Source: an uncultured delta proteobacterium
GTDB taxonomy: Bacteria; Myxococcota; Myxococcia; Myxococcales; Myxococcaceae
Length of the DNA: 64,000 nucleotides
NCBI GenBank assembly: GCA_963771175.1
Contig: CAVYSY010000057.1
Coordinates: 128,001 to 192,000 of the forward strand
Reading direction: 5' to 3'
Position numbers and translations under genes: made by a program. This document shows positions 2,706-63,082 of the stretch, in pieces. Below the pieces are notes generated by a model. That model made no database searches. It worked only from the letters and a program-made list of their open reading frames with translations, and was not told where the DNA came from. Every line of letters starts with the position of its first letter. The stretch's first letter is position 1.

Positions 2706-3398
2706 ATGCTTGGAACCTCCTCCATCGCGGTCATCGGTACGGGAAACATGGGGCGCGGGCTCGCGCGGGTGCTCGCCGCCGCAGGTCACACGGTGCTCCT
2801 CGGTTCGCGTGAGCCGGAGCGCGCCCATCAGCTCTCCACGGAGCTCGGAGCCGAGCACGTGCGGGGAATGAGCAACGTGGAGGCCGCCTCGCGCGCGTCC
2901 ATCGTCTTCCTCGCCTACCACTCCAACGACATGCTGGTGGAGGAGCTCGCCCCGGTCACCGAGGGCAAGGTGGTGGTGGACATCTCCACGTACCACGAGG
3001 AGCCTCCCCCCGACTTCAACCCGCTCACCCAGGTGCCCTCCGACTCACCCCAGGAGCGGACCGCCTCGCGGCTGCCCCGCGCACACGTGCTCGGCGCATT
3101 CCAGGTGACGTGGGCCCAGCTCTTCAGCGAGCCGCTGCTCGACGGACGCAAGACGCCTGTCTTCGTGGTCGGCGACCACGCGGAGGCGAAGGCGGCGCTC
3201 CTCGCGCTCATCCGCACGCTCCCCTTCGAGCCCGTGGATGCCGGAGGACTGCGACAGGCACGCGTCATCTCCGCCATGTACTTCCTCGTCACCCGCCTGG
3301 AGCGCCAGTACGGCTTCCCGGACCATGGCCATGACTGGCACACACTCGCTCGCTCGCTGAATGTGCTGCTCCCCCCCACGCTCGGGCTCCGCCCTTGA
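2706..3398 (+). CDS. NADPH-dependent F420 reductase family oxidoreductase
   Basis: IGTGNMG Rossmann motif, GSR, VVVDIS, PVDAGGL. Confidence 0.85.
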   Translation: MLGTSSIAVIGTGNMGRGLARVLAAAGHTVLLGSREPERAHQLSTELGAEHVRGMSNVEAASRASIVFLAYHSNDMLVEELAPVTEGKVVVDISTYHEEPPPDFNPLTQVPSDSPQERTASRLPRAHVLGAFQVTWAQLFSEPLLDGRKTPVFVVGDHAEAKAALLALIRTLPFEPVDAGGLRQARVISAMYFLVTRLERQYGFPDHGHDWHTLARSLNVLLPPTLGLRP

Positions 3399-10150: not shown

Positions 10151-13100
10151 CTACCCCACCGACACCGTGGGCCGTGCCTCGGGGGCCAAAGGGACCAGGA
10201 GTCCCGGCTCGCCCACCACGACGAGCCGGCTGCGCCCCGCGCCCTGCTTCACCACGCGCACCTGCACGCCGATGCGCTCGGCCAGCCCGGACACGTGGGA
10301 GATGATGCCCACCTGCCGGCCCGTGGCCTGGAGCGCGTCGAGCGTGGCCAGTGCCACCTCCAGCGTCTCCGGGTCCAGGGTGCCGAAGCCCTCGTCGATG
10401 AAGAGGGTCTCCACCTGGGTCGTCTCCGAGGAGAGCGAGGCGAGTCCCAGGGCCAGTGCCAGGGAGACGAGGAAGCCCTCTCCGCCCGAGAGGCTGGAGA
10501 CGGCGCGCACCTCGTCGCCCATGTCCCGGTCCACCACCTGCAGATCCAGGTCGTACTTCGGCACGCGCATGAGGCGGTAGCGCGGGGCCAGCTCGTCCAG
10601 GTGCGCGTTGGCGTGGTGCAGGAGCGCGTCCAGCGTGAGGCTCTGGGCGAACACCTTGAACTTCTTGCCATCGTGCGAGCCGATGAGCTCGCTGAGCGTG
10701 CGCCACACGCCGCCGGCACGCTGCTTCTCCTCCAGGAGCCGGGCCTGCTCGCCATGGCGGCGGCGGGCCTCGTCGTCCTGTTCGAGCCGGGCCTTCACGG
10801 TGGCAACGGCCTGACGCCGGGCCTCGGTGTCCGCTCGGGCCCGCTCACACGCGGTGGGGGCCTCCGCCTCGGAGAGGGACGGGAGGCCGGAAGCCTCGTG
10901 CCGGGTGCGCTGGCCCTCACGCTCCTTCAACACGGAGAGGGCGTGCTCGTGCGACTGACGCAGCGCGGACAGCGCGCGCTCCTCGGCCTCGCACCAGGCG
11001 GCGTCCCTCGCGAGCAGGGCCCGCACGGCTTCCAGCGTGAGGCTCCGTTCGGACAACAGCGCGGAGAGCGCCGCCTCGGCCTCGGCCTTCGCGGTGCTCG
11101 CGGCTTCACGGGTGCGCACCGCCTCCCCGACGAGCGCGGCGATGGTGGCCGCCGCCTGCTTCGCCTTCTCGGCCTCGGCGCGCACGGACTCAAAGGCCCG
11201 GGAGGCCTCCTCCAGCTCCCGGTGGAGCGTGGCACGGACCTCGGCGGTGGGCCGCCCGCCGAGCAGCGCCCCACGTGTGGCCTGAGTCTCGCGCAGCAGT
11301 TCCTGTGCTCGGGCCAGCGCCCCCGCGCAGTCCTCGGTCTGCGTGTGCCGCAAGCCGGCCGTGGCCTCCGCGGGAGCCCGCTTCGCCTCGGCCTGGACCA
11401 CCCGCGCCTCCGCCTCGCGCAGCGCCTGCTCGCGGGTATTCCACTCCGCCACCCACTTCGCGCAGCGCATCCGGAAGCTCACGGGGTCGGCCGTCAGCGA
11501 CTCCTGCCAGCGCTGCGAGTCCTTGAAGGGAGTCGCCAGCCCCACCAGCACCTCCTGGCGGACCTCCGAGGCCCGAGTCAGCTCACGCTCGGACACCGCC
11601 TGGGCCTCGACGTTCTGGCGCAGCGCCTCCTCCGACTGGCGCAGCACCTTCTCCGTCTCCTCCTGGCGCTCGCGCGCGACGGTGAGCGCGGCCCGGGCCT
11701 CCTTCGCCGCCCGAGCCAGCTTCTCCGCCGCCTCCTCCTCGGTCTTCAGCACGGCCAGTCGCGCCTTCGCCTCCGCGAGCGCCGCCTCCAGCCACGACTC
11801 GACGCCCTCGGCCTCCGCGTCCTCCGGGGGCAGGTCTCCCACGAGCTTCGCCCGGCAGGTGCTCCAGGACTCGCGCTGCTGCGCACGCCGCTTCGCCGCG
11901 GCCTCCCGGCGAGCCTCCGCCTGTGATGCCCGAGGGCCAGCCCCCGCCGCCCGCGCGCTGGCCGTGGCCTCCGCCCGAGTCGCCACCGTCCGCTCGCCCT
12001 CCAGCGCCTCCACCCGCCCCCGCGCCTCCACGACGAGCCCCTCCAGCGCCGCCTCCGCGCGGCCATAGGGGTGCTCCGTGGCACCGCACAACGGGCAGGG
12101 CTCGCCCTCGCGCAGCTCCGCCCGGTGCTCCGAGAAGCCCTGCGCCGCCCTCGCCCCGTCGAGCGCGCGCTGCGCCTCCTTCAGTGCGGCCTCGTGCTCG
12201 ATGCGGCGCACCTTCGCGGCCTCGGCCTCGGCCGTCGCGGACGCCTGCTCCGCCCGGGCCTTGTCGGCCTCCTCGGCGGCCTCCTGTTCAGCGCGCGCAG
12301 CCTCGCTCGCGCCCTTGCGTGCCTCCGTCAGCGCGCGCAGCCCCTCCTGCCGGGACAGCAGCGACTCACGCCGGGTCCGCCGCTCCGCGCCGGCATCCTC
12401 GCCCTGCGCGGCCTCGGCGCTGGCCACGGTGGCCTCCGCCGCCTGCACGGCCTCGCCCGCCTCGCGACGCTCCTCACGTCGGAGATCGACCTCCGCGCGC
12501 AGGGACTCCGCCTGGGTCCGCAGCTTCGTGAGCGAGTCGCGGGCCACGGTCTCTTCCTGCGTCGCGCGGCCATAGCGGGTGAGCTCGGCCTCCCACCGGG
12601 GCCACTCGCGGGCCAGCGCCTCCAGGCGCCCGTGCTCGCTGAGCCATGCCCGCGCCACATCCACGTCCGCGCGCGCGGCCGACTCCTCCTTGGCCACCCG
12701 CGCCACCTCGTCCCCGGCCAACCGCTCGGACTCCCGGGCCGCGTCCAGCTTTCGCGCCGCCTCCTGCTCATCGCTCCGCGCCCGCTCCAGCGCGGCATCC
12801 AGCTTCACGGCCTCTTCCAGCGCCGGGCGCGCGGTGGCTTCCGCTTCCACCGCCGCGTTCTTCCGCGCCTCCGCCTTCGCCCGTGCTTCCTCATGCTTCT
12901 GCGCCGAGGCCCGTGCCGACTCCTCCTCCGCGCGCCGCGCCGTCAGCGCCGAGTCCGCGTCCTCCAGTCGCCGCGCCGTCTCGTCCACGCGAGCCACCGG
13001 GGCGCGCAGCACCTCCGCCGAGCGCACCCGAGCCAGCTCCACCTTCCGAGGCTCCGCGGCCTCCACCGCCTGCGCCGCTCGCTGGCGTGCCTGCTCCGCC

Positions 13101-13936
13101 TCGGCCTCCTGTGCCACCAGCCGAGCCCGCTCCGTGTACCAGTGCGCCGCCTGCTCCGCCCGAGCCTGCGCCGCCTGGGCCTCCGCCTGCGCCGCCTCCT
13201 CGCGCGTCCTCAGCTCCTCCTGAGCCGCGCGGTCTTCGTCCGTCAGCCGGGCGATGGCCGCCACGCCATGCGCCAGCTTCTCCAGCTCCTCCTGCAACTC
13301 CTTGTGGCGCTGGTGCGCGGCCGTGGACAGCTTGCTGTACACCTCCGTCCCCGTCATCCGCTCCAGCAGCTCCGCGCGCTCGTTGGCGTCCGCGCGCAGG
13401 AAGGCCGCGAACTCCCCCTGCGCCAGCAGCGCCGAGCGCCGGAACTGGTCGAAGGACAGGCCCAGCCGCTCTTCAATCGCCTTGAGCACCTCGGACTTCG
13501 TGCGCCCGAAGGTCTGCCCGGTGGCCACGTCGGTGAGGACCATCTCCTGCGCCTGGAAGCGGCCCTCGGCCTTGCTGCGCGCCCGGCGCACCGTCCAGCG
13601 CGCGCGGTAGCGCCGGCCGTCCCTGCCCAGGAAGTCCACCTCGGCGAAGCCCTCGCCCGCCCCGCGCCGCAACACGCCGCGCACGTCGTTGGCCAGCAGC
13701 CGCGCGTCCACTTCCTCGTCCGGGCGCCCCACCGGAACGCCCCCGCGCTCGCCCAGCCGCGGCGTGCGGTCGAAGAGGGCCAGGCACATGGCGTCCAGCA
13801 GCGTGCTCTTGCCCGCGCCCGTGGCGCCGGTGATGGCGAACAGCCCCAGCTTGTCGAGCGGCGCCTGGTCCATCGCCAGGGCGAAGTCGCCCGCGAGGCT
13901 CGCCAGGTTGCGTCCGCGGATGGTGAGGATTCTCAA
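10151..13936 (-). CDS. sbcC: Exonuclease SbcCD subunit C (SMC-like ATPase)
   Basis: GATGAGKS Walker A, long coiled coil with CPLCG zinc hook, LSGGE signature, IDEGFG; TTG start overlaps the sbcD stop. Confidence 0.95.
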   Translation of the reverse strand: MRILTIRGRNLASLAGDFALAMDQAPLDKLGLFAITGATGAGKSTLLDAMCLALFDRTPRLGERGGVPVGRPDEEVDARLLANDVRGVLRRGAGEGFAEVDFLGRDGRRYRARWTVRRARSKAEGRFQAQEMVLTDVATGQTFGRTKSEVLKAIEERLGLSFDQFRRSALLAQGEFAAFLRADANERAELLERMTGTEVYSKLSTAAHQRHKELQEELEKLAHGVAAIARLTDEDRAAQEELRTREEAAQAEAQAAQARAEQAAHWYTERARLVAQEAEAEQARQRAAQAVEAAEPRKVELARVRSAEVLRAPVARVDETARRLEDADSALTARRAEEESARASAQKHEEARAKAEARKNAAVEAEATARPALEEAVKLDAALERARSDEQEAARKLDAARESERLAGDEVARVAKEESAARADVDVARAWLSEHGRLEALAREWPRWEAELTRYGRATQEETVARDSLTKLRTQAESLRAEVDLRREERREAGEAVQAAEATVASAEAAQGEDAGAERRTRRESLLSRQEGLRALTEARKGASEAARAEQEAAEEADKARAEQASATAEAEAAKVRRIEHEAALKEAQRALDGARAAQGFSEHRAELREGEPCPLCGATEHPYGRAEAALEGLVVEARGRVEALEGERTVATRAEATASARAAGAGPRASQAEARREAAAKRRAQQRESWSTCRAKLVGDLPPEDAEAEGVESWLEAALAEAKARLAVLKTEEEAAEKLARAAKEARAALTVARERQEETEKVLRQSEEALRQNVEAQAVSERELTRASEVRQEVLVGLATPFKDSQRWQESLTADPVSFRMRCAKWVAEWNTREQALREAEARVVQAEAKRAPAEATAGLRHTQTEDCAGALARAQELLRETQATRGALLGGRPTAEVRATLHRELEEASRAFESVRAEAEKAKQAAATIAALVGEAVRTREAASTAKAEAEAALSALLSERSLTLEAVRALLARDAAWCEAEERALSALRQSHEHALSVLKEREGQRTRHEASGLPSLSEAEAPTACERARADTEARRQAVATVKARLEQDDEARRRHGEQARLLEEKQRAGGVWRTLSELIGSHDGKKFKVFAQSLTLDALLHHANAHLDELAPRYRLMRVPKYDLDLQVVDRDMGDEVRAVSSLSGGEGFLVSLALALGLASLSSETTQVETLFIDEGFGTLDPETLEVALATLDALQATGRQVGIISHVSGLAERIGVQVRVVKQGAGRSRLVVVGEPGLLVPLAPEARPTVSVG

Positions 13937-15177
13937 GACGCGTCCTCCTGCACCTGGGTGAGGAGCGAGTGGAAGGCCTCGAGCAGCGCCGCGTCGGGCG
14001 GCTCGGTGTAGTCGCGCGCGTAGCGGGCGCGGAAGACGTCCTCGGGGGTGCGCTCCTTGAGGGAGACACCCGGCCGGTCCTCCGCGAGCGCGTTGCCGGT
14101 GCCGGTGTACTCCGGGGTGAGCTTCACCAGCCGCGCGGCCTTGCCCTCGAGCGCGTCCTCCACCCGGCGGCGCAGCGCGGGCTCGGGGCGGGGCAGCGCG
14201 ACGCGCACCTCCAGGTAGGGGCGCCGCCAGTCGGGCGTCTCGGGCTCCAGCGCGGGCAAGGCCTCCAGCAGCGCCACCACATCCTCGAGCGTGGCCGTGT
14301 CGCGCGAGGGCACCCGCAGCATCTCCACCCGGCGAGGCACGTGCAGCGGCCTCACGGAGGAGAGTTGCTCGCCGTCCAGCTCCACGAGCAGCACCTGGTG
14401 CGAGTAGCTCGCCTCGGAGAGCGACAGGGGAAGGGGCGAGCCGCTGTAGCGCACGCCCTCGCGCCCGCCCACCCGCTGCGCCTTGTGCAGGTGCCCGAGC
14501 GCCGCGTACGCCACGTCCTCGGGGAAGAGGTCCACCGGGAGCGCGTGCTGGTTGCCCCCGAGAATCTTGCGCTCGCTGAGCGCGGAGAGCTCGGTGCCCA
14601 CCATGTAGCAGTGGCCCATGGCCACGAGCGCCTGGCCCGGCTTGCGCTTCGCGCGCGCGCCCTCCAGCACCTCGGCGTACACCGAGCGCACGCCCTCGAC
14701 GAGCTTGTCCCCCACCTCCTCGGAGATGAGCGGCAGGTCCGCGGGCCGCAGGTAGGGCACCGCCGCCACCCACGCGCCCACCTTGCCCTGCGCGTCCTTC
14801 AGCGGCACCAGCAGGCGCTCCAGGTCCACCGCGCCGCTCGACTTCGGCAGCCCGCCCACCACGCGCACGTCGAGCGCGGAGAAGAGCGGATCCGGCGCAT
14901 CCAGCCGCGCCGCCGAGTCGTGGTTGCCACCGATGACGACGAGGTCCAACTTCGGGCAGCGGCGCCGGGCGCGAGCGACGAACTGGTACCAGGCGGCCTG
15001 GGCCTCGGCGCTGGGGTTGGCGGTGTCGAAGATGTCGCCGGCCACCAGCAGCGCGTCCACCTTCTGCGCCTCCAGCGTGTCCAGCAGCCAGTCGAGGAAG
15101 GCCGCGTGCTCGGCCTCACGGGACGTGTCGTACAGCGTGTGGCCGAGGTGCCAGTCCGATGTGTGCAGCAGGCGCAT
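13933..15177 (-). CDS. sbcD: Exonuclease SbcCD subunit D
   Basis: HTSDWHLG, AGDIFD, GGNHDS, LGHLH, YSGSP motifs. Confidence 0.95.
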   Translation of the reverse strand: MRLLHTSDWHLGHTLYDTSREAEHAAFLDWLLDTLEAQKVDALLVAGDIFDTANPSAEAQAAWYQFVARARRRCPKLDLVVIGGNHDSAARLDAPDPLFSALDVRVVGGLPKSSGAVDLERLLVPLKDAQGKVGAWVAAVPYLRPADLPLISEEVGDKLVEGVRSVYAEVLEGARAKRKPGQALVAMGHCYMVGTELSALSERKILGGNQHALPVDLFPEDVAYAALGHLHKAQRVGGREGVRYSGSPLPLSLSEASYSHQVLLVELDGEQLSSVRPLHVPRRVEMLRVPSRDTATLEDVVALLEALPALEPETPDWRRPYLEVRVALPRPEPALRRRVEDALEGKAARLVKLTPEYTGTGNALAEDRPGVSLKERTPEDVFRARYARDYTEPPDAALLEAFHSLLTQVQEDAS

Positions 15178-16349: not shown

Positions 16350-17082
16350 TCAACCTGAGGAGTCGTGCGACCCCAGGGCCCGCAGGAAGAGCCCTCGAAC
16401 CCGTTCGCCGAGCGCCCCATCGTCTTCCCCGAAGTCCTCTGGGCGTATGGGGGGCAGCACCCGGATGCGCACCCGCGCGCGGGGGCTCATCCACGGACCA
16501 TCCCCCTCCACCAGCTCCGTGGTGCCCTCGAGCACCACCGGCACCAGCGGCACCCGCTCCTCCAGGGCCAGCCGGAAGGCGCCGCGCCGGAAGGGCAGCA
16601 GCCGCCCCCCCTGCGCGTAGGTGCCCTCGGGGAAGAGGAGCACCGGCATGCCCCGGCGCAGCCACCCACGGCAGACGTCCAGCATCTCGCGCATGGACTG
16701 GTGCCGCCCCCGCTCCACCGCGCACGTAGCGCAGGAGGCTCATCATCCACCCCACCAGCGGAACCCGGAACAGCGAGGCCTTGGAGACGAACTTGAAGGG
16801 GTGGAACAGACCCATGGCGGCGAGGATGTCCGCCATGGACTGGTGGTTGGCCACCAGCACGCACGGGCCCTCGGGCAGCAGCTCGCGCCCCTCCACCCGC
16901 GTCCGCCACCCCGGCCAGACGCGCAGGTACTGGAAGCACCAGTGGCACACGTACGTGTGCAGCACGCGCCGCTCCGGGTCGAACGGCAGCGTGAGCAGCC
17001 ACAGCACCACGCCCAGCAGGAACCCGGGCACCGCCGTCAGCCCGAAGACGGCCCAGAACCAGAGCGTGGCGAGGTACTTCAC
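16350..17082 (-). CDS. Lysophospholipid (1-acyl-sn-glycerol-3-phosphate) acyltransferase (frameshift near 16722)
   Basis: NHQSMADI (HX4D) and FPEGT motifs in different frames; GTG start overlaps the SDR stop. Confidence 0.85.
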
Positions 17083-17867
17083 TTGGACGAGTTGAGGACG
17101 CTGGCGAACTGCATGGCGTAGTTCACCTCCAGCCCTCCATCCACCACCAGCGTCTGCCCGTTGACGTACGAGGAGCCCTCGGAGCACAGCCACTCAATCG
17201 TCTTGGCGATGTCATCCGCGCTGGCCACGTAGCCCACGGGGACGCTCTCCTTCACCTTGGCCTCGAGCGCGGCCCAGGCATCTCCCATGTAGAAGCGGCT
17301 GGAGTCGGTGTCGATGTAGCCCGGGTTGACGGCGTTGACGCGGATACCGGAGGAGGCCAGCTCGGCGGCCAGGTACTTCACCAGAATCTCCATGGCGCCC
17401 TTCATCGCGCCGAGGAAGCCGTGGAAGGGCAGCGGCATGCGCGAGTCCATGCCGGACACCATGACGATGCGGCCCTTGCGGCCCTCCATCAGCGGCACGG
17501 CGCGCTGGGCGCCCAGCAGGAAGCTCTTCACCGTGACGTTGAACGTCTTGTCCATCTGGTGGAGCTTCATCTGCATGAGCGGGGTGAAGGCGGTGGAGGC
17601 GGCGTTGGCCACGAAGACGTCCAGCCCGCTGAACTCCTGCTGGACCACGTCGAAGGCGGCATGGAGGCTGGCCGGCTCGAGCTGATCCGCGATGACGGCG
17701 CGGCAGCGGCGGCCGAGCGCCTCCACTTCCTTCACGAGGGCCTCGGCGGCCTCGGCGTCGCGCCGGTAGGTGGAGACGATGTCGTAACCCGCCTTCGCGA
17801 GTCTCAGGGAGAGGGCGCGGCCCACGCCACGCGAGCCGCCGGTGATGAGCGCCACGGGAGCAGTCAT
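17079..17867 (-). CDS. SDR family oxidoreductase (FabL/FabG-like)
   Basis: [31 protein letters not shown]. Confidence 0.85.
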
Positions 17868-18010
17868 GCCCCCGGGCATACCACCTTCCACACGCCTCCG
17901 GCCGGTGTCCTGATTCAGCTCACTCCCGGGACGGATTGTTCGATTCCGGGACAGGCTCGCCCAGGTGCCATTTCCCCAGGTATTCCAACAGTTTGAGCCC
18001 CATATTGCCA

Positions 18011-18026
18011 GGTTTGTTTACAAACC
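18011..18026. promoter_or_regulatory. Inverted repeat GGTTTGT-N2-ACAAACC, candidate enhancer (UAS) for the downstream sigma54 promoter
   Basis: 7-bp perfect arms in an AT-richer patch ~75-90 bp upstream of the -24 box. Confidence 0.45.
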
Positions 18027-18098
18027 CGATGCGCCGCCATGGTCCACCCGCGCCGGAGCCGGAGGGAGACTCCCCAGGAAGTCCGCGCACTTGGACGT

Positions 18099-18113
18099 TG
18101 GCACGGCCAGTGC
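18099..18113 (+). promoter_or_regulatory. Sigma54 (-24/-12) promoter
   Basis: TGGCACGGCCAGTGC with exact GG-N10-GC spacing and full TGGCACG box. Confidence 0.7.
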
Positions 18114-18124
18114 TCAAGAGAGGT

Positions 18125-18210
18125 CCGTCGAATACGACGCGTCCCCTCAAGAACCTGACGCGACTGGAGGGCTCCGGGTTCCCCACCAACCCGGGGCCCT
18201 CATCATTTCT
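18125..18210 (+). ncRNA. Candidate sigma54-dependent small RNA, three stem-loops, C-rich loops (Pxr-like architecture)
   Basis: SL1 GTCG-AATA-CGAC; SL2 GCGTC-CCCTCAAGAACCT-GACGC; SL3 14-bp stem 18167-18201 with loop CCCCACC, then ATCATTTCT; begins at the predicted +1. Confidence 0.55.
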
Positions 18211-18252
18211 GGAGCCAGGGTCGAGGGACGTCCAGCGCTAGAGTGCGCCGCC

Positions 18253-18957
18253 ATGCACGTCGCGCCCGGCCCCTCCCCGACTCCCGCCGGCCCTCGCTGG
18301 CTCTACCTGCACGGCTTCGCCTCCGGCCCCGGCTCCGCCAAGGGCGTGGCCCTCGCCGAGCACTACGCGCGCCAGGGCATCCACCTGGAGCGGTTGGACC
18401 TGCGCCAGCCCTCGCTCGAGCACCTGCGCCTGAGCGCGATGATGAGGACGGTGCGCGACGCCATCGGCGGCGAGCGGGACCGGGCCATCCTCTTCGGCTC
18501 CAGCCTGGGCGGGCTGACGGCCTGCCGCGTGGCCGAGGAAGACTCCCGGGTGTGCGCGCTGGTGCTGCTGGCGCCGGCCCTGCGCGCCTCGGAGCAGATG
18601 CGGCGCAACGTGGGCGAGCGGAACCTGCGCCAGTGGCGGGAGACGGGCTGGCTGGAGACCCAGGACTACGCGGAGAAGCGGATGGCCCGGGTCCACTTCG
18701 GCCTCATCGAGGACCTCGACGCCATCGAGGCGCGCTCGGAGGGCTGGCCGGACGTGCGGGTGCCCACGCTCCTCATCCACGGGAGCCGGGACACCACCAC
18801 CCTGCCGCCGTACTCCCGCACGTGGGCGCGCGGCAAACGCCACGTCCGCCTCGTCGAGGTGGACGACGGCCACGAGCTGGTGGACTCGCTCGGGCGCATC
18901 GCCGCCGAGGCGGACGACTTCCTGCGGCCCTTCCTCGCGCCGCCCGAGCCCCGGTAG
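18253..18957 (+). CDS. YqiA/YcfP family alpha/beta hydrolase (esterase)
   Basis: YLHGFAS, GSSLGG, IHG..D, DDGHEL. Confidence 0.85.
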   Translation: MHVAPGPSPTPAGPRWLYLHGFASGPGSAKGVALAEHYARQGIHLERLDLRQPSLEHLRLSAMMRTVRDAIGGERDRAILFGSSLGGLTACRVAEEDSRVCALVLLAPALRASEQMRRNVGERNLRQWRETGWLETQDYAEKRMARVHFGLIEDLDAIEARSEGWPDVRVPTLLIHGSRDTTTLPPYSRTWARGKRHVRLVEVDDGHELVDSLGRIAAEADDFLRPFLAPPEPR

Positions 18958-26190: not shown

Positions 26191-26985
26191 CTACGGGTTC
26201 CTGAGCCCACCGGAGCGCCGGTCGGAGTCGCCGCCCTGCCCGGGCCCCTGCCAGCCCCGAGGCCGCGACTCCCGCCACTCCTCGCGCCGCATTTCCTCGT
26301 ACTTCACCCGCTGCGTCTCATCGAGGACGGACGCCATTCCCTTGTCCGTCTGCTCGCGCGCCGCGCGAAGCTCCTGCCGGGCATCCCGGGGCGACTTGCC
26401 ACCGGCGCGCACCTCGTCGAAGAGGGCCTGACGCTGGGCGTCCTCGTGCTGCAGCCGGCTCGTGAGCGCCTGCTCCTGGGTGTAGTTCAACCGCGCCTCG
26501 GAGACGAACTGGCGCAAGCGCTCGGCGCGCTCCACCTGGCCCTGCGCCTGCGCCTGCTGCAGCTGCTGCTGCCGGAGCTCACGCTGCTCGGTCCGCATCT
26601 CCTCCTGCACCGAGCGCACCATGTCCTTGAGGTAGTCGCGCCCGCCCTGGGAGCTCAGGGCCTCGCCGGCGATCATGCTTCGCACCTCCGTCTTGAGCTG
26701 CTCCACCTCCGCGGCCAGCGCCACCGGGGCCACGGCCACGCCGCCATCCGAGGAGGCCATCGGCCGCTGCTCGAGCAGCATCAGCCGCTTGGACAGGGTT
26801 AGCGCGGTCTGCTCGAGGGACTCCACCCGTTGCTCCAGCTCCTCGAGCTCGCTCGAGGACAGGGTGGAGGGCGTCGCGGGAGAAGGAGCGGGAGCCACCG
26901 TCTCGCCGCGCGAGCCCCAGAGGGCCACCACGAGCGCCAGGCCGGACAGGCCGAGGGAGGCGAAGCCAAGGAACCGGTTCATCAT
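26191..26985 (-). CDS. Hypothetical membrane-anchored coiled-coil protein
   Basis: N-terminal hydrophobic helix, Glu/Gln/Arg-rich coiled coil, GAGG upstream. Confidence 0.65.
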   Translation of the reverse strand: MMNRFLGFASLGLSGLALVVALWGSRGETVAPAPSPATPSTLSSSELEELEQRVESLEQTALTLSKRLMLLEQRPMASSDGGVAVAPVALAAEVEQLKTEVRSMIAGEALSSQGGRDYLKDMVRSVQEEMRTEQRELRQQQLQQAQAQGQVERAERLRQFVSEARLNYTQEQALTSRLQHEDAQRQALFDEVRAGGKSPRDARQELRAAREQTDKGMASVLDETQRVKYEEMRREEWRESRPRGWQGPGQGGDSDRRSGGLRNP

Positions 26986-27144
26986 GTCCTCACAGACGGG
27001 GGCGCCCCCAACGTATTCCATGGACCTGCTGAAGCCCGCGCACCTCCCTGTGGTGGACACAACGACGCACCGCGCCAACGCACTGGGGATGCAACTCGGG
27101 TCCGATTTTGCCGACAATTCCTGGAACCCCCCACAGGAGTCCCC

Positions 27145-29217
27145 ATGCAACGATGTTCCTTCTTATCCCCTCGCCTGTTGGCGGCCGTGACGCTCGCGCT
27201 CGTCCTGGGCGCCTGCGGCACGGACGTTCCGGTCGAGGATTCCCTCTCCACCCAGAGTGCCGCGCTCGTCGACCCTTGTGCCACCAACCAGGGCTTCCAG
27301 GTTGGCGCCGGCCTGTATGACGTCACCGGCCCGGCCGCCGAGCTCGGAATGATGGGCTATGCCATGGTGGACCAGAAGACCGCGGGCATCCACCAGCGCC
27401 TGCGCTCGCGCGCCTTCGTCATCTCCTCCACCTGCAACGGCAAGCGCGTGGCGTTCGTCAGCGCGGACCTCGGACAAGTCTTCCAGGGCGTGAAGCAGCA
27501 GGTGATGGAGAAGCTGCGCGCGAAGTACGGAACCCTCTACTCGGACGAGAACGTCCTGCTGAGCGCCACGCACACCCACTCGGGCCCGGGCGGCTTCTCG
27601 CACTACGCGCTCTACAACCTCACCACTCTCGGCTACGACAAGCAGAACTTCGACGCCACCGTGGACGGCATCTACCAGTCCATCGTCCGCGCCCACGACA
27701 ACCTGGCGCCCGGCACCATCCGCGTGGCCTCCGGAGACCTGCTCGACGCGAGCATCAACCGCTCCCCCGAGGCGTACCTGCGCAACCCCTCCACCGAGCG
27801 CGCGCAGTTCGGCTACGACACGGACAAGAAGATGACGCTGCTGCGGCTGCAGGGCGATGACGGGAGGGAGGTGGGCCTCATCAACTGGTTCGCCGTCCAC
27901 GCCACGTCCATGGGCAACGACAACCTGCTCATCAGCGGCGACAACAAGGGCTACGCCTCCTACCTCTTCGAGAAGCTCAAGGGGACGAACTACACCGCGC
28001 AGCGCACCTTCGTGGCGGCCTTCGCGCAGGCCAACGAGGGCGACGTGACGCCCAACATCTACGGCGGCACCAACGGCGGCGGCGCCAACGACTTCGAGAG
28101 CGTGGAGCTCTCCGGCCGCAAGCAGTACACCCTGGCGAAGACGCTCTACGACTCGGCGTCGACGCTGGTGAAGGGGGGCGTGGACTACCGGCACGTCTAC
28201 GTGGCGATGGACTCGGTGCAGGTGGCGCCCGCGTACACGGACGGCGTCTGGCGCTCCACCTGCGAGGCGGCCATCGGCGACTCGATGATTGCCGGCGCCG
28301 AGGACGGCCCGGGCTATGGCACGGAGGGCTCCACCTGCGAGAGCATCAAGGACACGTGGGGCGTGTTCAACTGCGCCTTCTTCACCACGCCGTGCCAGGG
28401 AGAGAAGCCCATCGCCGTGGAGATGGGCACGATGACGCCCTACCCGTGGACGCCCGAGGTGCTGCCGCTCCAGGTGGTGCGCCTGGGCAACGTGGCGATG
28501 GTGGCGGTGCCCTTCGAGCCCACCACCATGACGGGCCGGCGGCTGCGCCAGACGGTGCTCGCGCAACTCTCCCCGCTGGGGGTGGACCAGGTGGTCATCG
28601 CCGGCCTCTCCAACGCCTACGCCGGCTATCTCGCCACGCGCGAGGAGTACGCGAAGCAGGACTACGAGGGTGCCTCCACGCACTTCGGCCCGTGGCAGCT
28701 CGCGGCGGTGCAGCAGGAGGTGGACAAGCTGGCCATCGCGATGCGCACCGGCGCCACCGTGGCGGCGGGCCCCACCCCGAGGGACCTGCGCAACGACCAG
28801 ACGACGGTGCAGCCGGGCGTGCTGTACGACGACAAGCTGCTCTGGGTGGACTTCGGCAGCATCGTCACGAACGCGCGCAGCTCCTACGTCCGGGGCGAGA
28901 CGGTGAGCGTGAAGTTCTGGGGCGGCCACCCGAAGAACAACCTCCGCCGCCAGGGCTCCTTCCTCCAGGTGCAGCGCAAGTCGGGCACCTCGTGGGTGAC
29001 GGTGGCCAACGACTGGGACTGGGAGACGAAGTACCGCTGGGAGCGCAATAACTGCGCTCCCACGTTCGGGTGCTCGCACATCACCACGGAGTGGAAGATT
29101 CCGGCGGACACCACGCCGGGCACCTACCGCATCCGCCATGACGGTGACTGGAAGTCCGGCTGGGACGGGCTCATCCGCCCCTACTCCGGCACGTCGCGCG
29201 AGTTCACCGTCAACTGA
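27145..29217 (+). CDS. Neutral/alkaline ceramidase, lipoprotein
   Basis: Lipobox VLGAC, ATHTHSGPGG, WFAVHATSM, SGDNKG, YEGAST.FGP, GTYRIRH. Confidence 0.92.
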   Translation: MQRCSFLSPRLLAAVTLALVLGACGTDVPVEDSLSTQSAALVDPCATNQGFQVGAGLYDVTGPAAELGMMGYAMVDQKTAGIHQRLRSRAFVISSTCNGKRVAFVSADLGQVFQGVKQQVMEKLRAKYGTLYSDENVLLSATHTHSGPGGFSHYALYNLTTLGYDKQNFDATVDGIYQSIVRAHDNLAPGTIRVASGDLLDASINRSPEAYLRNPSTERAQFGYDTDKKMTLLRLQGDDGREVGLINWFAVHATSMGNDNLLISGDNKGYASYLFEKLKGTNYTAQRTFVAAFAQANEGDVTPNIYGGTNGGGANDFESVELSGRKQYTLAKTLYDSASTLVKGGVDYRHVYVAMDSVQVAPAYTDGVWRSTCEAAIGDSMIAGAEDGPGYGTEGSTCESIKDTWGVFNCAFFTTPCQGEKPIAVEMGTMTPYPWTPEVLPLQVVRLGNVAMVAVPFEPTTMTGRRLRQTVLAQLSPLGVDQVVIAGLSNAYAGYLATREEYAKQDYEGASTHFGPWQLAAVQQEVDKLAIAMRTGATVAAGPTPRDLRNDQTTVQPGVLYDDKLLWVDFGSIVTNARSSYVRGETVSVKFWGGHPKNNLRRQGSFLQVQRKSGTSWVTVANDWDWETKYRWERNNCAPTFGCSHITTEWKIPADTTPGTYRIRHDGDWKSGWDGLIRPYSGTSREFTVN

Positions 29218-54510: not shown

Positions 54511-56160
54511 TCAGGTGGCCCCCGAGCCGAGGCCGAGCTCCTTGACGCGACGTCCCAGCGCCCGCTTCGACACCTGGAGGCGCCGGGTCATCGCCTCCAG
54601 GTCACCCTGACACTCATGATGGCAGCGGGTGATCTCCTCGGCGCTCAGGTCCCCGGCGGTCCGCAGGTTCGGGCTCTTGTCGATCAAATCGTAGATGGAG
54701 GACCGGTGGATGCGGAGCTGGTCGGCGGCGGCCTGGAAGTCCCAGTCGTTCTCCCGAAGGGCGGCCAGCAGCTCCGGCTCGGTGATCTCGGAGGGCTTGC
54801 GGCGGGAGGGGGCCTTGGCCTCGGCCGTGGGCTGCGCGGTGGCGGGTCGCCCCGAGGGAGCCACCTTCGCCAGGGCCAGCTCCTGCTCGAGCTGGGCATC
54901 GAGCTGCAGGCGCGGCTGGCTTCGACTGCCAATGACGAGCTGCCGCACCACGTTGCGCAGCTCTCGGATGTTCCCCGGCCACCGGTGGCCCACCAGGCGC
55001 GCGGCCAGCGCCGGCGGGAGCCAGGGCTCGGCGAAAGGCTCCTCGGGCCGCAGGCGCCAGGCCTCTCCCAGCGCCTCCAGCTCCCCGCGGGCGAAATGGT
55101 GGAACAGCAGCCCGATGTCCTCTCGCCGCTCACTCAGCGGCGGCACGCGGATGGAGTAGCCGGCCAGCCGATGCAGCAGCGGCGCCTTGAAGCGCCCCTC
55201 GTGGATCTGCTGCTCCAGGTGCGCGTCCGTCGCGGCGATGAGCCGTACATCGACGGCGACAGGAGAGCGCTCGCCCACGGGGTAGAGCTGCCCTGTCTCC
55301 AGCACCCGCAGCAGCATCACCTGCACCTCGGGCGGCGCCTCGCCCACCTCATCCAGGAACAGCGTCCCCCCATGGGCGGCCTGGAAGAAGCCCGACTGAT
55401 CCCTCACCGCGCCGGTGAAGGCCCCCTTGCGCGCGCCGAACAGCTCCGTGGCCGCCAGCTCCCGGGGAATGGCGCCCAGGTTCACGCTGACGAACGCCTT
55501 GTCCCCGCGCGAGCTGTGCCGATGGATGGCCTGGGCGATCAGCTCCTTGCCGGAGCCCGTCTCCCCGCGAATGAGCACCGGCACGTCCAGATCCGCCACC
55601 TGCATGATGTGTTGGCGCACGCGCTGGAGCCCCACGCTGGTGCCCACCATGCCCAGTGCATCCACGGCCTCCTTGGCCGAGGCGTCCGCCAGGTGCAACA
55701 ACAGCAGCACGCGTCCGGCCAGTTCCAGCGGCACGCCCGCGGCCACCTCCTCGGCCGAGAACTCCCACGGCTCGCGCAGCACTTCTCCTCCGACGGCCAC
55801 TCGGCTCCCCTCACCCGGCTCCAGCCGGATGCGACCCTCCACGCCCGGCGCGAAGACGAGCGGCTTGCGGCTCAGGAAGGGATCCGCCAGATGCATGCCA
55901 AGTGCGCCCCCAGGCCGAGTGAAGTCCGGCTCATTGCGGGACAGGAGGACCTGGCGGCCCTCGGCCAGCGCCTCCAGCAGCAGCCGCTCACCGACGCGAT
56001 GCGCCTGGGGGTGCGAAGCGATGGTCAGCGCGGGGACGAGCCGGGAGCCCGGCGGAGTGCGGTGGCCTCTCGAGGCATCGGCCGTGGAGATATCCGCGGC
56101 CTCCTGCCTGGACCTGACTTCTCGTGGGTTGCACGCCGGAGGACGGGGCACTGAGGTCAC
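54511..56160 (-). CDS. Sigma54-dependent enhancer-binding protein with FHA-like N-terminus (start uncertain)
   Basis: GETGSGKE, GAFTGA, FLDEVG, WPGNIREL, C-terminal HTH segments. Confidence 0.9.
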   Translation of the reverse strand: MTSVPRPPACNPREVRSRQEAADISTADASRGHRTPPGSRLVPALTIASHPQAHRVGERLLLEALAEGRQVLLSRNEPDFTRPGGALGMHLADPFLSRKPLVFAPGVEGRIRLEPGEGSRVAVGGEVLREPWEFSAEEVAAGVPLELAGRVLLLLHLADASAKEAVDALGMVGTSVGLQRVRQHIMQVADLDVPVLIRGETGSGKELIAQAIHRHSSRGDKAFVSVNLGAIPRELAATELFGARKGAFTGAVRDQSGFFQAAHGGTLFLDEVGEAPPEVQVMLLRVLETGQLYPVGERSPVAVDVRLIAATDAHLEQQIHEGRFKAPLLHRLAGYSIRVPPLSERREDIGLLFHHFARGELEALGEAWRLRPEEPFAEPWLPPALAARLVGHRWPGNIRELRNVVRQLVIGSRSQPRLQLDAQLEQELALAKVAPSGRPATAQPTAEAKAPSRRKPSEITEPELLAALRENDWDFQAAADQLRIHRSSIYDLIDKSPNLRTAGDLSAEEITRCHHECQGDLEAMTRRLQVSKRALGRRVKELGLGSGAT

Positions 56161-56191
56161 GTCCCAGAGCAAAGCAGACTTCCGGCGACAC

Positions 56192-56227
56192 TTCCACGCG
56201 TCGAGCCTCCGGGTTCCACGCGTGGAA
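56192..56227. promoter_or_regulatory. Tandem palindromic sites (TTCCACGCGTGGAA and a partial copy 22 bp away)
   Basis: Perfect palindrome at 56214-56227; TTCCACGCGT at 56192-56201. Confidence 0.4.
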
Positions 56228-56632
56228 ACGGCCCACCGCCCATGCGTTCCCCTGATTCCCGGTGGGAGAGCGGACTTGCCACGGAGGGGTCCCTCCCAGT
56301 CGGTGTTCGGCCTCACGGTGAAGCGCGGGCGCGTCAATCCCTTGAGGACGCGCCGAGCTGGCGGGCAACGACCCCGACTCGGGCTTCGTGGCGTTCCGCG
56401 CGGGCACGAAGGGCTGACCTTCTGGGCGGCGAAGCAGGCGGGGGCTCGACGCCTCCCCAGGGGCAGGCTCGCGATGGGTGCCGGTACAGCGCGTCGGCGA
56501 AGCCGTAGATGCGGCGGCCCTCCGACGGCTCGATCACCAGCCCCATCTGCGTCAGGCGCTGCCGGCCGTCGCTCGCTCATGGCTAGCGCTGGGGTCGACA
56601 CTCGATGACCTCGTGCGCACAAAAGAACTGCC

Positions 56633-57592
56633 ATGAAACCATCCATCCCCAGCCAGATGAAGGCCGCCATCGTCGAGCACTTTGGCGGACCCGAGGTCCT
56701 CCACACTGGGACGCTGCCCGTCCCTGAGCCGGGTGAACACGAGATCCTCCTCCGCGTGGATACAGCCGGGATTGGTGTCTGGGATCCGTGGGTACGGGAA
56801 GGCGGGTTCGACGACGGCTCGACGCGTTTTCCTTACGTGATGGGCAACGACGGGGCGGGCGAGGTGGTCGCCGTCGGTCCCAAGGTACGCCGCCTGCGTG
56901 TGGGAGATTGCGCCTATGGCTTCCAGATGGAGGGAGGCTTTTACGCCGAGTACGTCAAGCTCGAGGAGAGCCACGCGGCACGGGTCCCGAAGGGCGTGGA
57001 CGCGAAGGAGGCGGGAGCGCTGGGCGCGGACGGCATCACGGCGCTACGGGGGCTGGACGATGAGCTGCGCCTGCGCAAAGGACAGTCACTCATGATCATC
57101 GGCGCGAGCGGCGGCATCGGACACATGGCCGTGCAATTGGCCAAGCGAATCGGGGCGCGGGTACTCGCGGTGGCGTCGCGGCCGGACGGGATGGAGCTGG
57201 TCAAGAAACTTGGCGCGGACGCCGCCATCGATGGGCGGAGCGAGGACGCGGCGAAAGCAGCGCGCGAGTTCGCGCCCGAGGGGCTGGATGCAGCACTCGT
57301 GCTCGCTGGCGGAGACGATGTGGATGAAGCGCTGAAGGCAGTCAAGAAAGGCGGTCGAATCGCCTACCCCAACGGTGTCGAACCCGAGCCCAGGGCGCCG
57401 AAGGGTGTCACGCTGCTTGCGTACAACGGCACTCCCAGCGAGGAGGCGTTCGATCGCCTCAATCGGTTGATTGGAGACGCACCGTTTCATGTCGAGCTGG
57501 GAAAGGTCTACGAACTCGACGACGCCGCCCAGGCGCACCGGGACATTGGAAAGCACCACCTGGGGAAGTTCGCGATACGCATCCATTCGTAG
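56633..57592 (+). CDS. NADP-dependent oxidoreductase (MDR/quinone reductase family)
   Basis: FGGPEVL, G.DGAGEVVAVG, GASGGIG, AHRDI...GK. Confidence 0.9.
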   Translation: MKPSIPSQMKAAIVEHFGGPEVLHTGTLPVPEPGEHEILLRVDTAGIGVWDPWVREGGFDDGSTRFPYVMGNDGAGEVVAVGPKVRRLRVGDCAYGFQMEGGFYAEYVKLEESHAARVPKGVDAKEAGALGADGITALRGLDDELRLRKGQSLMIIGASGGIGHMAVQLAKRIGARVLAVASRPDGMELVKKLGADAAIDGRSEDAAKAAREFAPEGLDAALVLAGGDDVDEALKAVKKGGRIAYPNGVEPEPRAPKGVTLLAYNGTPSEEAFDRLNRLIGDAPFHVELGKVYELDDAAQAHRDIGKHHLGKFAIRIHS

Positions 57593-57747
57593 GTGAGCCT
57601 GCCCTGCGGGGCCTCGGCGGACGGAAGGCGCAACGGCATGCCCATCTGTTCCCGGCCCAGCAGCAGCAGCACCAGCGCCGGCAGTACTTCACGCCGTAGG
57701 CGCGGGGTGGGCGGCCCTCGGAGCTCCACCCTCCGAGGGACCCCTCC

Positions 57748-57820
57748 CTGGAGCACCTGCAACTGCCCACGCGACCTCCGAAGCTGGCCCCCGGCGCACA
57801 GCCCGAGTTGCTCCCCTCAG
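57748..57820 (+). mobile_element. Possible remnant of an IS91-like transposase C-terminus
   Basis: Translates LEHLQLPTRPPKLAP, resembling recalled myxobacterial transposase ends; very short. Confidence 0.25.
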
Positions 57821-60927: not shown

Positions 60928-61447
60928 GGCGTGGACGCTCCGGGGGCTCAGAAGACGCGGTAGACCTGACCGGTCTGATGGACCTCTCGAACATGTCCTC
61001 TTCACGTCATGGCACAAATGTCTTTGCATTGGTGTCGGCAGACTTCATGGCATGAACACCCTGCACACCCGCGAAGTCTTCAGCGGCCTCGCTGAGCATC
61101 TGTCGCCAACCTGACTGTTGACTCGATCGTGGATTGACAAGACCGATGGGTCCGTCTCCCTCTCGTCCTCTATTTTTCTGCCGTCCTCAAATTTCTGCTT
61201 TTCTGACACTCTTAAACTCTGACACCAAGACAGTCGGCAGGCCCTCAAATGCGAACTTCCTCACGGGAAATCTCCATTCGCGATGAAACGATATGAGTGC
61301 CACGCGTTTCTATTGACTGGCTGAAATCGATCTTTATATTAATCTGCACTTTCCCTGTTTTTGGAATATCCAAGACCTCCTGGGATGTGCGGACCACGGC
61401 ATGTCGGCGACCCCGGGGCCATCCTCTCTGTTTTTCCCTCAAAGCTC

Positions 61448-63082
61448 ATGAACACAAATCAGATCTCGGACGAGAACGACGGCAGGGTGCGGAAGCTCAT
61501 CATCGTTGGCGGTGGAAGCTCGGGCTGGATCGCGGCGGCCTATCTAAGCAAGGCATTGAATTCCAATGTCGCCATCACCCTGATCGAGTCCCCCACCATC
61601 GGCAGGATTGGTGTCGGCGAGGCCACCATTCCGACCATCAAGGAAGAGCTGTTCGACTTCCTCGAGATTCCCGAAGAGGAATGGATGTCGGAGTGCAAGG
61701 CCTCGTACAAGCTGGGCATCCGATTCCAGAACTGGAAGCGGCCGGCCTCCGAGGGCGGGGACCATTACTACCACAACTTTGGTGAGATACCTTCGGTGAA
61801 GGGCGTGCCCCTCTCGCACGTCTGGATGTACAAGCACCAGCTGCAGGGCTATGCCAAGCCTCTCGACTACTCCTGCTATCACGCCTCTGTCATCAGTGAC
61901 GCCAGGAAGTCACCGCGCTATATGGACGGGACCAAGGCCGTCCACTATGCATACCACTTCGATGCGTTGCTGATCGCCGAGTACCTCAAGAAGTGGTCCA
62001 TCGAGCGGGGGCTCACCCACATCACCGACGACATCGTTGGCACGGAGCTGGACGAGGGTGGCGACATCCAATCCCTGCGCGGTGCCAGCGGGCGCAAGTA
62101 CGAGGCGGACCTCTACGTCGATTGCACCGGCTTCGCGGGTCTGCTCATCGAGAAGGCGCTTGGCGAGCCGAAGATCAACTTCCACGACTGCCTCCTCACC
62201 GACCGCGCCGTCGCCATCAACATCCCCTCGGACTCCGAGGTGGAAGGCATCCGCCCCTACACGAGCGCCAGCGCCTTCAGCTCCGGCTGGACCTGGGAGA
62301 TTCCGCTCTACAACCGCGCCGGCAACGGTTACGTCTATTCCAGCGCCTTCCAGACAGCCGACGACGCGGAGCGGGAGATCCGTGCCTGGTTCGGCAAGAA
62401 GGCGGAGAAGCTGGATGCGCGTCACATCAAGTTCGTCTCGGGCAGGCGTCGGCGCTCCTGGGTGAAGAATTGTGTGAGCATCGGCCTGTCCAGCAGCTTC
62501 CTCGAGCCGCTGGAGTCGACCGGCCTCTATTTCGTCTACGCCGCGCTGTACCAGTTGGTGGCCTTCTTCCCGAACAAGGTCATTGATCCGGCGCTGCGCA
62601 ACAAGTTCAACGAGCGCGTGGCCTACATGGTGGATGACGTGCGCGACTTCATCGTGCTGCACTTCTGTACCTCCCCGCGCACCGATACGCCGTACTGGCG
62701 GGCCAACCAGAACGAGCTCAAGCTGCCTGATACGCTCAAGGAAGTCCTCGAGCTGCAGAAGGCGGGCATTCCCATCCGGAAGAGCTACCACTCGAACAAC
62801 TCGCTGTATGACTCCTTCGAGGCGGGTTTCGACAGGTTCTGGACCAACAGCAACTTCCAATCCATCTTCGCAGGGGTTAACTACCTGCCGAAGCAGCCCA
62901 TGCCGCTGCTGCGGCACCGGACGGACATCCTGTTCGAGGCGGAGCGGGTGTTCGAAGACCTCCAGCGGAAGACGGACCAGATGATGGCCCAGTTGCCCAC
63001 GCAGTATGAGTATCTCACCTCCCTGTACGCCAAGGGCAGGAATGGCGGCCAGGCCGCTCTGGCAGCGAAGCTGGCAGGCTGA
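61448..63082 (+). CDS. prnA: Flavin-dependent tryptophan halogenase (PrnA-like)
   Basis: GGGSSG, GVGEAT, catalytic K in YKLGIRF, WTWEIP, FLEPLEST; adjacent prnB. Confidence 0.88.
   Translation: MNTNQISDENDGRVRKLIIVGGGSSGWIAAAYLSKALNSNVAITLIESPTIGRIGVGEATIPTIKEELFDFLEIPEEEWMSECKASYKLGIRFQNWKRPASEGGDHYYHNFGEIPSVKGVPLSHVWMYKHQLQGYAKPLDYSCYHASVISDARKSPRYMDGTKAVHYAYHFDALLIAEYLKKWSIERGLTHITDDIVGTELDEGGDIQSLRGASGRKYEADLYVDCTGFAGLLIEKALGEPKINFHDCLLTDRAVAINIPSDSEVEGIRPYTSASAFSSGWTWEIPLYNRAGNGYVYSSAFQTADDAEREIRAWFGKKAEKLDARHIKFVSGRRRRSWVKNCVSIGLSSSFLEPLESTGLYFVYAALYQLVAFFPNKVIDPALRNKFNERVAYMVDDVRDFIVLHFCTSPRTDTPYWRANQNELKLPDTLKEVLELQKAGIPIRKSYHSNNSLYDSFEAGFDRFWTNSNFQSIFAGVNYLPKQPMPLLRHRTDILFEAERVFEDLQRKTDQMMAQLPTQYEYLTSLYAKGRNGGQAALAAKLAG

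Follow-up and report, generated by a model that had tools for sequence, protein, structure and literature searches.

The sequence considered here, referred to below as the window, is a stretch of 64,000 nucleotides (nt) of GC-rich DNA from an uncultured member of the Myxococcaceae, the genes of which have their best relatives in Archangium (protein identity up to 94%). Between two divergently oriented genes of the window, one encoding an SDR protein (17079-17867, - strand) and the other an alpha/beta hydrolase of the UPF0227 family (the esterase; 18253-18957, + strand, ATG at 18253), lies a short unit which had been predicted to be a sigma-54-driven small RNA (sRNA) gene with C-rich loops, resembling the myxobacterial sRNA Pxr and acting in trans. 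Comparison with related genomes gives a different account of its origin, in that the "sRNA gene" is, with high confidence, what a deleted, sigma-54-controlled protease gene has left behind, a shell consisting of its promoter and terminator. For the locus as a whole, the best explanation appears to be that this empty shell of a sigma-54-dependent gene is now a young sRNA derived from the 3' untranslated region (3'UTR) of the lost gene, a reading that is favoured with modest confidence.

The origin of the unit can be read from Archangium gephyra PVMSAZ (L008), one of 80 loci from species-representative genomes that were retrieved with the esterase as handle. In this strain the homologous promoter (TGGCATGGGCAGTGCT, 2052-2067 of the locus) is followed by a Shine-Dalgarno (SD) sequence and by an ATG at 2108, at which begins an intact open reading frame (ORF; 2108-2893) for a 261-amino-acid trypsin-like (V8-like) lipoprotein protease with a Trypsin_2 domain; the ORF is followed in turn by TGATTCGC..CTGACGCGAGC and by the third stem-loop (SL3) of the predicted RNA. 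The window and six relatives (L002, L003 from Archangium minus Cbm 6, L006 from A. gephyra SDU49, L009 from A. lansingense, L010 and L011; together the seven short forms, to which the counts of invariant positions given below refer) are without a block of approximately 802 nt that is present in L008. Between promoter and SL3, the sole L008-specific block in comparison with L009 and L006 spans 2083-2884 (802 nt), and the remaining 56 nt can be aligned free of gaps, L008 being identical to L009 at 42/56 positions and to L006 at 36/56. The block starts 5 nt past the predicted transcription start, ends three codons before the stop codon and is bounded in L008 by two 5-nt GCATC repeats (2078-2082 and 2880-2884), which are the apparent signature of a microhomology-bounded deletion; the corresponding junction in the window falls at about 18129/18130. 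L008 thus shows what is expected of the precursor of an sRNA derived from a coding gene: at the same locus, an intact gene lies between this promoter and this terminator, and its two ends can be aligned with the short form. What is observed directly is that the unit is homologous to the intact gene, where the junction lies and how conservation is distributed. By tblastn the protease is encoded in one of the 80 loci, that of L008, and the window gives no match better than E = 1.1, while the protease family itself extends across the Myxococcaceae, with identities of 96, 89 (A. gephyra), 87, 82, 80, 78 (Melittangium) and 75% (Cystobacter) and of ~60-66% in Myxococcus (~64%), Corallococcus and Hyalangium.

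The direction of the change can be told from the C-terminus of the protease. In an alignment of 15 family members drawn from at least six genera, every protein ends in ..GL, and both G260 and L261 are invariant, so that the junction-proximal codons must be native protease codons, and these persist in decayed form in the short forms, as AGTCTGTGA in L009 and L010 and as GGTCCG in L006 and the window. The short form therefore arose by deletion and not by insertion. The converse history, in which a gene was inserted into an ancestral sRNA locus in L008, is favoured by parsimony on the tree of the flanking genes and was rejected on the same observation, the junction codons being the native C-terminus of the family. 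Recurrent independent deletions at the same repeats are disfavoured, as the invariant Gly codon reads AGT, a non-synonymous change, in both L009 and L010, which places the deletion before the split of these two lineages.

What the deletion left at its 5' end is a promoter. Sigma-54 promoters have GG at -24 and GC at -12 with a fixed spacing (TGGCAC-N5-TTGCW), and transcription usually begins 12 nt past the -12 GC. The sequence TGGCACGGCCAGTGC at 18099-18113 on the + strand fits this consensus, as had been predicted, and the full promoter, TGGCACGGCCAGTGCT, shows the GG and GC elements at the fixed spacing of TGGCAC-N5-TTGCW; with the GC at 18112-18113 taken as -13/-12, the usual distance of 12 nt would put the start at about 18125. 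The significance of the promoter comes from its conservation in relatives and not from the motif alone. Within 700 nt upstream of the esterase, the motif is found on the + strand in 7/80 loci, all of them from Archangium (L002, L003, L006, L007, L009, L010 and L011), and in 0/69 loci outside L001-L011; one match on the minus strand, in a Sorangium locus, was taken as chance. The form TGGCACG-N4-NTGCT is kept in seven loci and in the window with four of the five spacer positions variable, and L008 has TGGCATG. Within the short forms, invariant positions number 11/11 in the -24/-12 core, as against 1/5 in the spacer and 0/7 in the 7 nt past the promoter, which for the core corresponds to a Fisher p of 0.0034 relative to the fourfold degenerate (4-fold) sites of the two flanking genes (136/232 invariant) and of 3e-5 relative to adjacent positions. 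The feature is real, and its promoter is very probably a genuine sigma-54 promoter.

Conserved blocks located 75-180 nt upstream (pairwise identity among the short forms 0.65-0.80, vs 0.42-0.48 in unconstrained stretches) are candidate sites for an activator, i.e. a bacterial enhancer-binding protein (bEBP), and for a bending protein. Since these blocks span the entire divergent intergenic region, they could also be taken to indicate a role at the level of the DNA, in which bound sigma-54 holoenzyme or an activator modulates the SDR and esterase promoters and the RNA is irrelevant; conserved and transcriptionally silent sigma-54 binding sites are reported for E. coli (PMC4591121). Such a role seems very unlikely, as the SDR and esterase genes manage with start codons only ~41-45 nt apart, with no blocks and without any of the unit, in Cystobacter (L013 and L019) and in an Archangium metagenome-assembled genome (MAG; L004), and as it leaves the conservation of SL3 unexplained. 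The correct spacing is also seen in a second sigma-54-like element of the window, TTGG-N10-TGC at 17994-18009, ~105 nt upstream of the main promoter; its GG is intact in L005, L006, L007, L008, L010 and L011 and reads GA in the window, L002, L003 and L009, the -12 half is lost in L007, and the element could be a former second promoter or a portion of a -35-like TTGNNC box. The window also encodes a 731-residue protein with a Sigma54_activat AAA+ domain, i.e. a bEBP (54511-56706, - strand), which is the sole one in the window, the domain being found in 0/17 ORFs scanned between 5.7 and 32.4 kb; this gene lies 36 kb from the promoter at 18099, and nothing connects the two.

At the 3' end of the unit, SL3 is the sole terminator-like site in 17500-18700 (mean of 0.3 in shuffles). 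It lies 51 nt before the esterase ATG, and the tail ATCATTTCTG ends about 43 nt before it; the 14-bp stem, the CCCCACC loop and the T-rich tail are all present as originally described. With a GC-rich hairpin (18167-18201) and a U-tract behind it, the 3' end of the unit is arranged like a Rho-independent terminator, and SL3 does stand in that position behind genes, its hairpin beginning ~33 nt past a stop codon in L008 and ~27 nt past one in L001. The exact SL3 core is found in 8/80 loci and, with one substitution, in L002 and L007, which makes 10 loci plus the window. In the short forms SL3 is invariant at 30/35 positions and its loop at 6/7 (Fisher p = 0.0012 vs the 4-fold sites). Its aligned cells are 99.4% paired; of the pairs that vary, three are G.U on the + strand, in L002 a C-G pair has become U-A through a change on both sides, and the sole broken pair is the loop-closing pair of L007. 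Because the variable stem pairs keep pairing in these ways, one loop-closing cell excepted, SL3 is, as judged from the alignment, a genuine RNA hairpin of the + strand. It resembles an ordinary Rho-independent terminator in its GC-rich 14-bp stem, 7-nt loop and T-containing tail, and indeed acts as one in position for the protease of L008 and for an unrelated ORF of L001; it differs from one in that 6/7 loop positions are invariant, the linker of ~9 nt before it is conserved, conservation exceeds that of neighbouring 4-fold sites and the hairpin was retained after gene loss.

The rest of the predicted RNA presents a different picture. The 88-nt RNA of 18125-18212 folds as three hairpins at -38.9 kcal/mol (z = -3.85; equalled by 1/200 shuffles), which agrees with the three hairpins foreseen from a start at about 18125, and the SL2 loop is CCCTCAAGAACCT, again as described; over 18122-18215 the + strand gives -41.8 kcal/mol (z = -3.24) and the - strand, at z = -1.76, is no better than shuffles. 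The first two hairpins are not conserved. The remnant at 18122-18157 is invariant at 3/36 positions, vs 6/9 for the linker at 18158-18166, and the stretch past the tail at 2/29; SL2 is paired in 81% of cells, and each species has its own hairpins upstream of SL3. The three-hairpin architecture is shared by the window with its closest relative alone, and the C-rich SL2 loop, to which the prediction had given a role in pairing, is confined to the window, with the nearest relative, L002, having a different loop. Of the steps that had been proposed for checking the prediction, the alignment of orthologous intergenic regions thus bears out the promoter core and SL3 and does not bear out SL1 and SL2. 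Positions that could serve as a pairing seed are those of the SL3 loop (6/7 invariant) and of the linker (6/9), the C-rich SL2 loop not being conserved.

A covariance model (R1) built from SL2 and SL3 of 11 copies and searched over the window and the 80 loci (559,755 bases) found no copies beyond the 11 used to build it, plus their reverse strands, and the SL2-SL3 element is thus not a dispersed repeat in the DNA searched. The best other matches were at 57671-57755 of the window (23.9 bits) and in L079, L057, L020 and L051 (15-23 bits); the window match (+ strand), considered as an extra copy, is by eye an unrelated GC-rich hairpin (CCCTCGGAG..CTCCGAGGG). A hidden small ORF was likewise discarded, the predicted RNA containing no ATG, GTG or TTG by reading, and the mechanical ORFs across the region of the unit are contradicted by non-triplet indels in the alignment.

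The suggested likeness to Pxr does not hold. Rfam 15 presumably includes a Pxr model, and a cmscan of Rfam at the gathering score, one of the checks proposed for the prediction, gave 0 matches in the window and in 10 related loci; at E <= 10, the region 17850-18300 gave four chance-level matches (mir-2232, F6, BjrC68 and SOX2OT), none of them to Pxr and none with E < 0.25. According to the literature, every known pxr homologue is flanked on one side by nla19, the gene for a sigma-54 response regulator, and on the other by an NADH dehydrogenase gene (PMC5568312), and in Pxr it is SL1 and SL2 that are highly conserved, with SL3 being variable apart from an 8-bp core (PMC5684412). The neighbours of the present unit are the SDR and UPF0227 hydrolase genes, so that the prediction was right to place it outside the known pxr context, and its conservation pattern is the reverse, SL3 being invariant at 30/35 positions and the SL1/SL2 region at 3/36. 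What is shared with Pxr of Myxococcus and other Cystobacterineae (PMC5568312, PMC5684412) is the myxobacterial host, an apparent sigma-54 promoter, a length of ~85-108 nt, several stem-loops and an important 3' stem; what sets the unit apart is the lack of a sequence or structure match, the SDR-esterase locus, the restriction of conservation to SL3 and linker, the limitation to Archangium and a demonstrable origin from protease UTRs. A paralogue of the Pxr family outside the nla19 locus could be argued from the sigma-54 promoter, the three hairpins predicted in the window, the myxobacterial host and the several pxr paralogues carried by Archangium strains that went at the time under the names Cystobacter minor and C. 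violaceus (PMC5568312). Against this stand the empty Rfam searches, the SDR-esterase context in place of the nla19-NADH dehydrogenase one described in that paper, the reversed conservation and the homology to the UTRs of a protease gene, which together make it extremely improbable; on the evidence of sequence and context, the element is not a Pxr relative.

The original prediction had named an attenuating leader of the esterase gene as its alternative, i.e. a sigma-54-driven 5' leader with SL3 as conditional terminator. The promoter does face the esterase from ~150 nt upstream, the weak U-tract of SL3 makes read-through possible, and in L007 the promoter abuts SL3. The esterase, however, carries its own -10-like element 8 nt before the ATG, and TAGAGT-N8-ATG is invariant at 14/17 positions; TAGAGT, TACAGT or TACATT occurs shortly (mostly 7-8 nt) before the esterase ATG in Archangium, Cystobacter, Myxococcus, Corallococcus and Hyalangium, whatever lies upstream, the hexamer being seen in the window, L004, L013, L019, L024, L025, L046, L050, L051, L071 and others. 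Most of the 18 loci that were read for the esterase start (17 without the unit, and L022 with a possible fragment) carry such a TAnAnT-type element, and no SD sequence is visible before the esterase ATG of the window (GCGCCGCC), so that the esterase probably has its own promoter and a leaderless or near-leaderless mRNA. An esterase leader should be co-inherited with an esterase that has no promoter of its own; the motif is found on the + strand in 0/69 loci outside L001-L011 and the -10-like element is present regardless. In L008 this promoter serves the protease gene, with SL3 lying between that gene and the esterase, and a strongly conserved 14-bp terminator between promoter and esterase argues against simple read-through. 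A role as esterase leader is, on this evidence, quite unlikely. Since TAnAnT is kept in genera without the unit and the L008 promoter serves another gene, the unit is, by comparison of these loci, independent of the esterase. The prediction of a separate unit is borne out to this extent, its origin as the shell of a deleted protease gene having escaped notice.

Whether the shell is maintained for a function is a question of how it has been kept and lost. The SDR-esterase pair is restricted to the Archangium/Cystobacter group (13 of the 80 loci). Across the 13 loci of the Archangium clade, the window included, the protease gene is intact in one (L008); promoter, remnant and SL3 are present in seven, the short forms; the promoter abuts SL3 in one (L007); SL3 is without promoter in two, namely L005, with the -24 half deleted, and L001, in which another ORF runs up to SL3; and nothing of the unit is left in two (L004 and L022). 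In L001, an Archangium MAG, the SDR gene and the promoter are replaced at 1912-2990 by an unrelated ORF of ~335 residues, ending 13 nt before the linker CTGATGCGA and SL3, and its overlap with a longer ORF (783-2663) points to a frameshift or a fault in the assembly; the upstream ORF has no counterpart in the window or the other loci, for which reason the context is regarded as rearranged. In L022, a MAG on a long branch, the ~95-nt intergenic region (~2870-3000) ends with ..CGATTCCGGG directly before TAGAGTG and resembles window 17941-17950, which suggests a further deletion of promoter, remnant and SL3.

The deletion predates the L009/L010 split and the promoter core is invariant nonetheless, which indicates that the promoter was upheld after the gene was lost, and the invariance of core and SL3 with a randomised sequence between them (3/36) argues for continued selection; the unit is thus probably kept by selection. 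The competing view is that of a functionless relic, a promoter and a terminator left from the deleted protease gene, the transcript of which, if made, would be idle, and which is being lost piecemeal. It is unlikely, yet of the alternatives the one with most to say for itself, as part or all of the unit is lost in 5/12 gene-less loci of the Archangium clade (L001, L004, L005, L007 and L022), no constraint is seen over the first two-thirds of the predicted RNA (3/36 invariant, with folds that differ by species) and SL3 is conserved regardless of upstream content. What speaks against a relic is that the core is invariant at 11/11 positions in seven lineages while its 5-nt spacer and flanks vary, that a deletion older than the L009/L010 split should have left time for neutral decay to strike the core, and that the upstream blocks are more conserved than their surroundings.

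Several observations weigh against a functional sRNA, or against the history proposed for it. The unit is dispensable, given the five loci in which it is partly or wholly lost, and such piecemeal loss is what a decaying relic would show. SL3, loop included, is no less conserved where it simply terminates a gene (L008 and L001) or where there is no promoter (L005), and the conservation of SL3 therefore needs no sRNA function from the promoter. The covariation of SL3 is statistically weak, the observed values being reached by 64/500 shuffles, as there is little variation. The U-tract is poor in L006 (GTCCTCGC), L007 (ATCCTCGC) and L009 (GTCCTTGC), and because of these weaker tails the termination efficiency of SL3 is uncertain. 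By itself the promoter motif occurs at chance frequency (1 match in the window vs 1.08 expected; >=1 match in 70/100 shuffles), the 4-fold sites of a genome with ~0.9 GC at third codon positions are not truly neutral, and the alignment of the remnant is uncertain outside the group of L006, L009, L010 and L008. The tree of the flanking genes nests L008 among the short forms, as sister to L006 (support 96/91), so that a single old deletion calls for alleles having been exchanged afterwards, or for both having long persisted side by side as a polymorphism; an allele donor is plausible, since other genomes carry intact orthologues (78-96% identity). Finally, promoter activity, the +1, termination and any trans-acting function are deduced from the DNA.

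Table 1. Features of the unit and of its borders in the window
Feature	Position	Strand	Basis
Upstream regulatory region	17896-18098	+	conserved blocks, alignment of 11 intergenic regions
Upstream block TTCCGGGACAGG	17944-17955	+	
Upstream block ATTTCC..GTATTCC	~17970-17986	+	
Upstream block TTTACAAAC	18017-18025	+	
Upstream block CCAGGAAGTCCGCGCACTTGGACGT	18074-18098	+	
Sigma-54-type -24/-12 promoter, TGGCACG-GCCAG-TGCT (TGGCACGGCCAGTGCT)	18099-18114	+	motif scan and conservation in relatives
Homologue of the first 15 nt past the L008 promoter (L008 2068-2082); holds the predicted +1 (~18125)	18115-18129	+	alignment; ends at junction
Decayed remnant of the last protease codons and 3'UTR, including SL2 (~18138-18162) and the conserved linker CTGACGCGACTG	18130-18166	+	alignment to L008 2885-2925
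SL3: 14-bp GC-rich stem, loop CCCCACC, intrinsic-terminator-like	18167-18201	+	terminator scan, fold and conservation
Short T-rich tail ATCATTTCTG	18202-18211	+	terminator scan
Esterase -10-like element TAGAGT-GCGCCGCC-ATG, 8 nt before the start codon; right-hand boundary of the unit	18239-18255	+	conservation

In the scheme proposed for these features (Table 1), the Archangium ancestor would have carried, between the divergent SDR and esterase genes, a cassette consisting of activator sites, the -24/-12 promoter, the gene for the 261-residue protease and a 3'UTR with the terminator hairpin, an arrangement still present in A. gephyra PVMSAZ. In the lineage of the window, the loss of ~802 nt, bounded by GCATC in L008, would have fused the first nucleotides past the predicted start to the last codons, the 3'UTR and the terminator SL3. 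Upon activity of the cognate enhancer-binding protein, sigma-54 RNA polymerase would start near 18125 and stop at SL3, near 18205-18210, to give a non-coding RNA of ~85 nt that would essentially be the 3'UTR of the protease mRNA. As a best guess, this RNA may be a young sRNA that was exapted from a 3'UTR and is still wired to the old sigma-54 regulon, as OxyS is, with SL3 and the linker before it, and not SL1 or SL2, as its active part. The existence of a discrete short transcript of ~85 nt is reasonably probable; that the RNA has a selected function, which if real would reside in the linker and SL3, can be put forward only tentatively and is somewhat doubtful.

Known systems provide precedents for parts of this scheme. 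Qrr and CrcZ are sigma-54-dependent sRNAs, and GlnZ comes from the 3'UTR of the sigma-54-dependent glnA mRNA. In sigma-54-dependent sRNAs such as GlmY (PMC3045617), transcription from a -24/-12 promoter that has activator sites upstream of it yields a short RNA ending at a terminator, which is the arrangement predicted here. Those RNAs were shown by experiment, whereas the present one is a prediction; moreover, GlnZ is released from a complete message, while in the present unit no coding part is left and transcription would run from the promoter straight into the 3'UTR. For OxyS, Krieger et al. 2022 (PMC8825220) describe an origin from a fragment of a peroxidase mRNA, with the sRNA having stayed in the parental regulon. 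On that account the two cases are alike in that a short non-coding unit took the place of a coding gene at the locus of that gene, with the ancestral promoter and regulon retained, a transcribed part that stems from the old mRNA, and an intact gene at the corresponding position in relatives. They are unlike in that here the RNA is only predicted, regulation would involve sigma-54 and a bEBP and not OxyR, the junction is readable, and intact and deleted alleles are found within one genus.

A few further observations concern the neighbourhood. For the SDR gene, two ATGs in the same frame, separated by 12 nt, would give starts at 17867 and 17879 (window 17865-17879, - strand), and the block GGCATACCACCTTCC, which includes the upstream ATG, is nearly invariant across 11 intergenic regions, for which reason the true start may be at 17879. 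Other genes of the window comprise an SbcC/SbcD pair (10151-15177, - strand), a homologue of neutral/alkaline ceramidases (26830-29217, + strand) and a tryptophan halogenase (61361-63082, + strand).

For the prediction of sRNAs the locus carries a warning, in that an intergenic promoter with hairpins and a terminator can be the shell of a lost gene, and if the RNA is inert the finding amounts to an ordinary gene-loss scar. The origins of bacterial sRNAs are poorly documented, OxyS being among the few worked-out cases, and this locus offers a readable deletion junction, intact and deleted alleles within one genus, and a promoter and 3' hairpin that, to judge from their conservation, have outlived their gene. 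It may, though this is at present the less likely outcome, represent an sRNA near its birth, in which a single microhomology-bounded deletion took out the coding part of a secreted protease gene and put its already conserved 3'UTR under the sigma-54 promoter, and in which selection has retained the resulting regulated ~85-nt RNA across most lineages of Archangium. Should the 3'UTR have been processed into a regulatory RNA while the gene was still intact, the deletion would merely have freed a regulator from its mRNA. If the proposed history is true, the intact allele in A. gephyra PVMSAZ and other strains would let the states before and after the event be compared within one genus.

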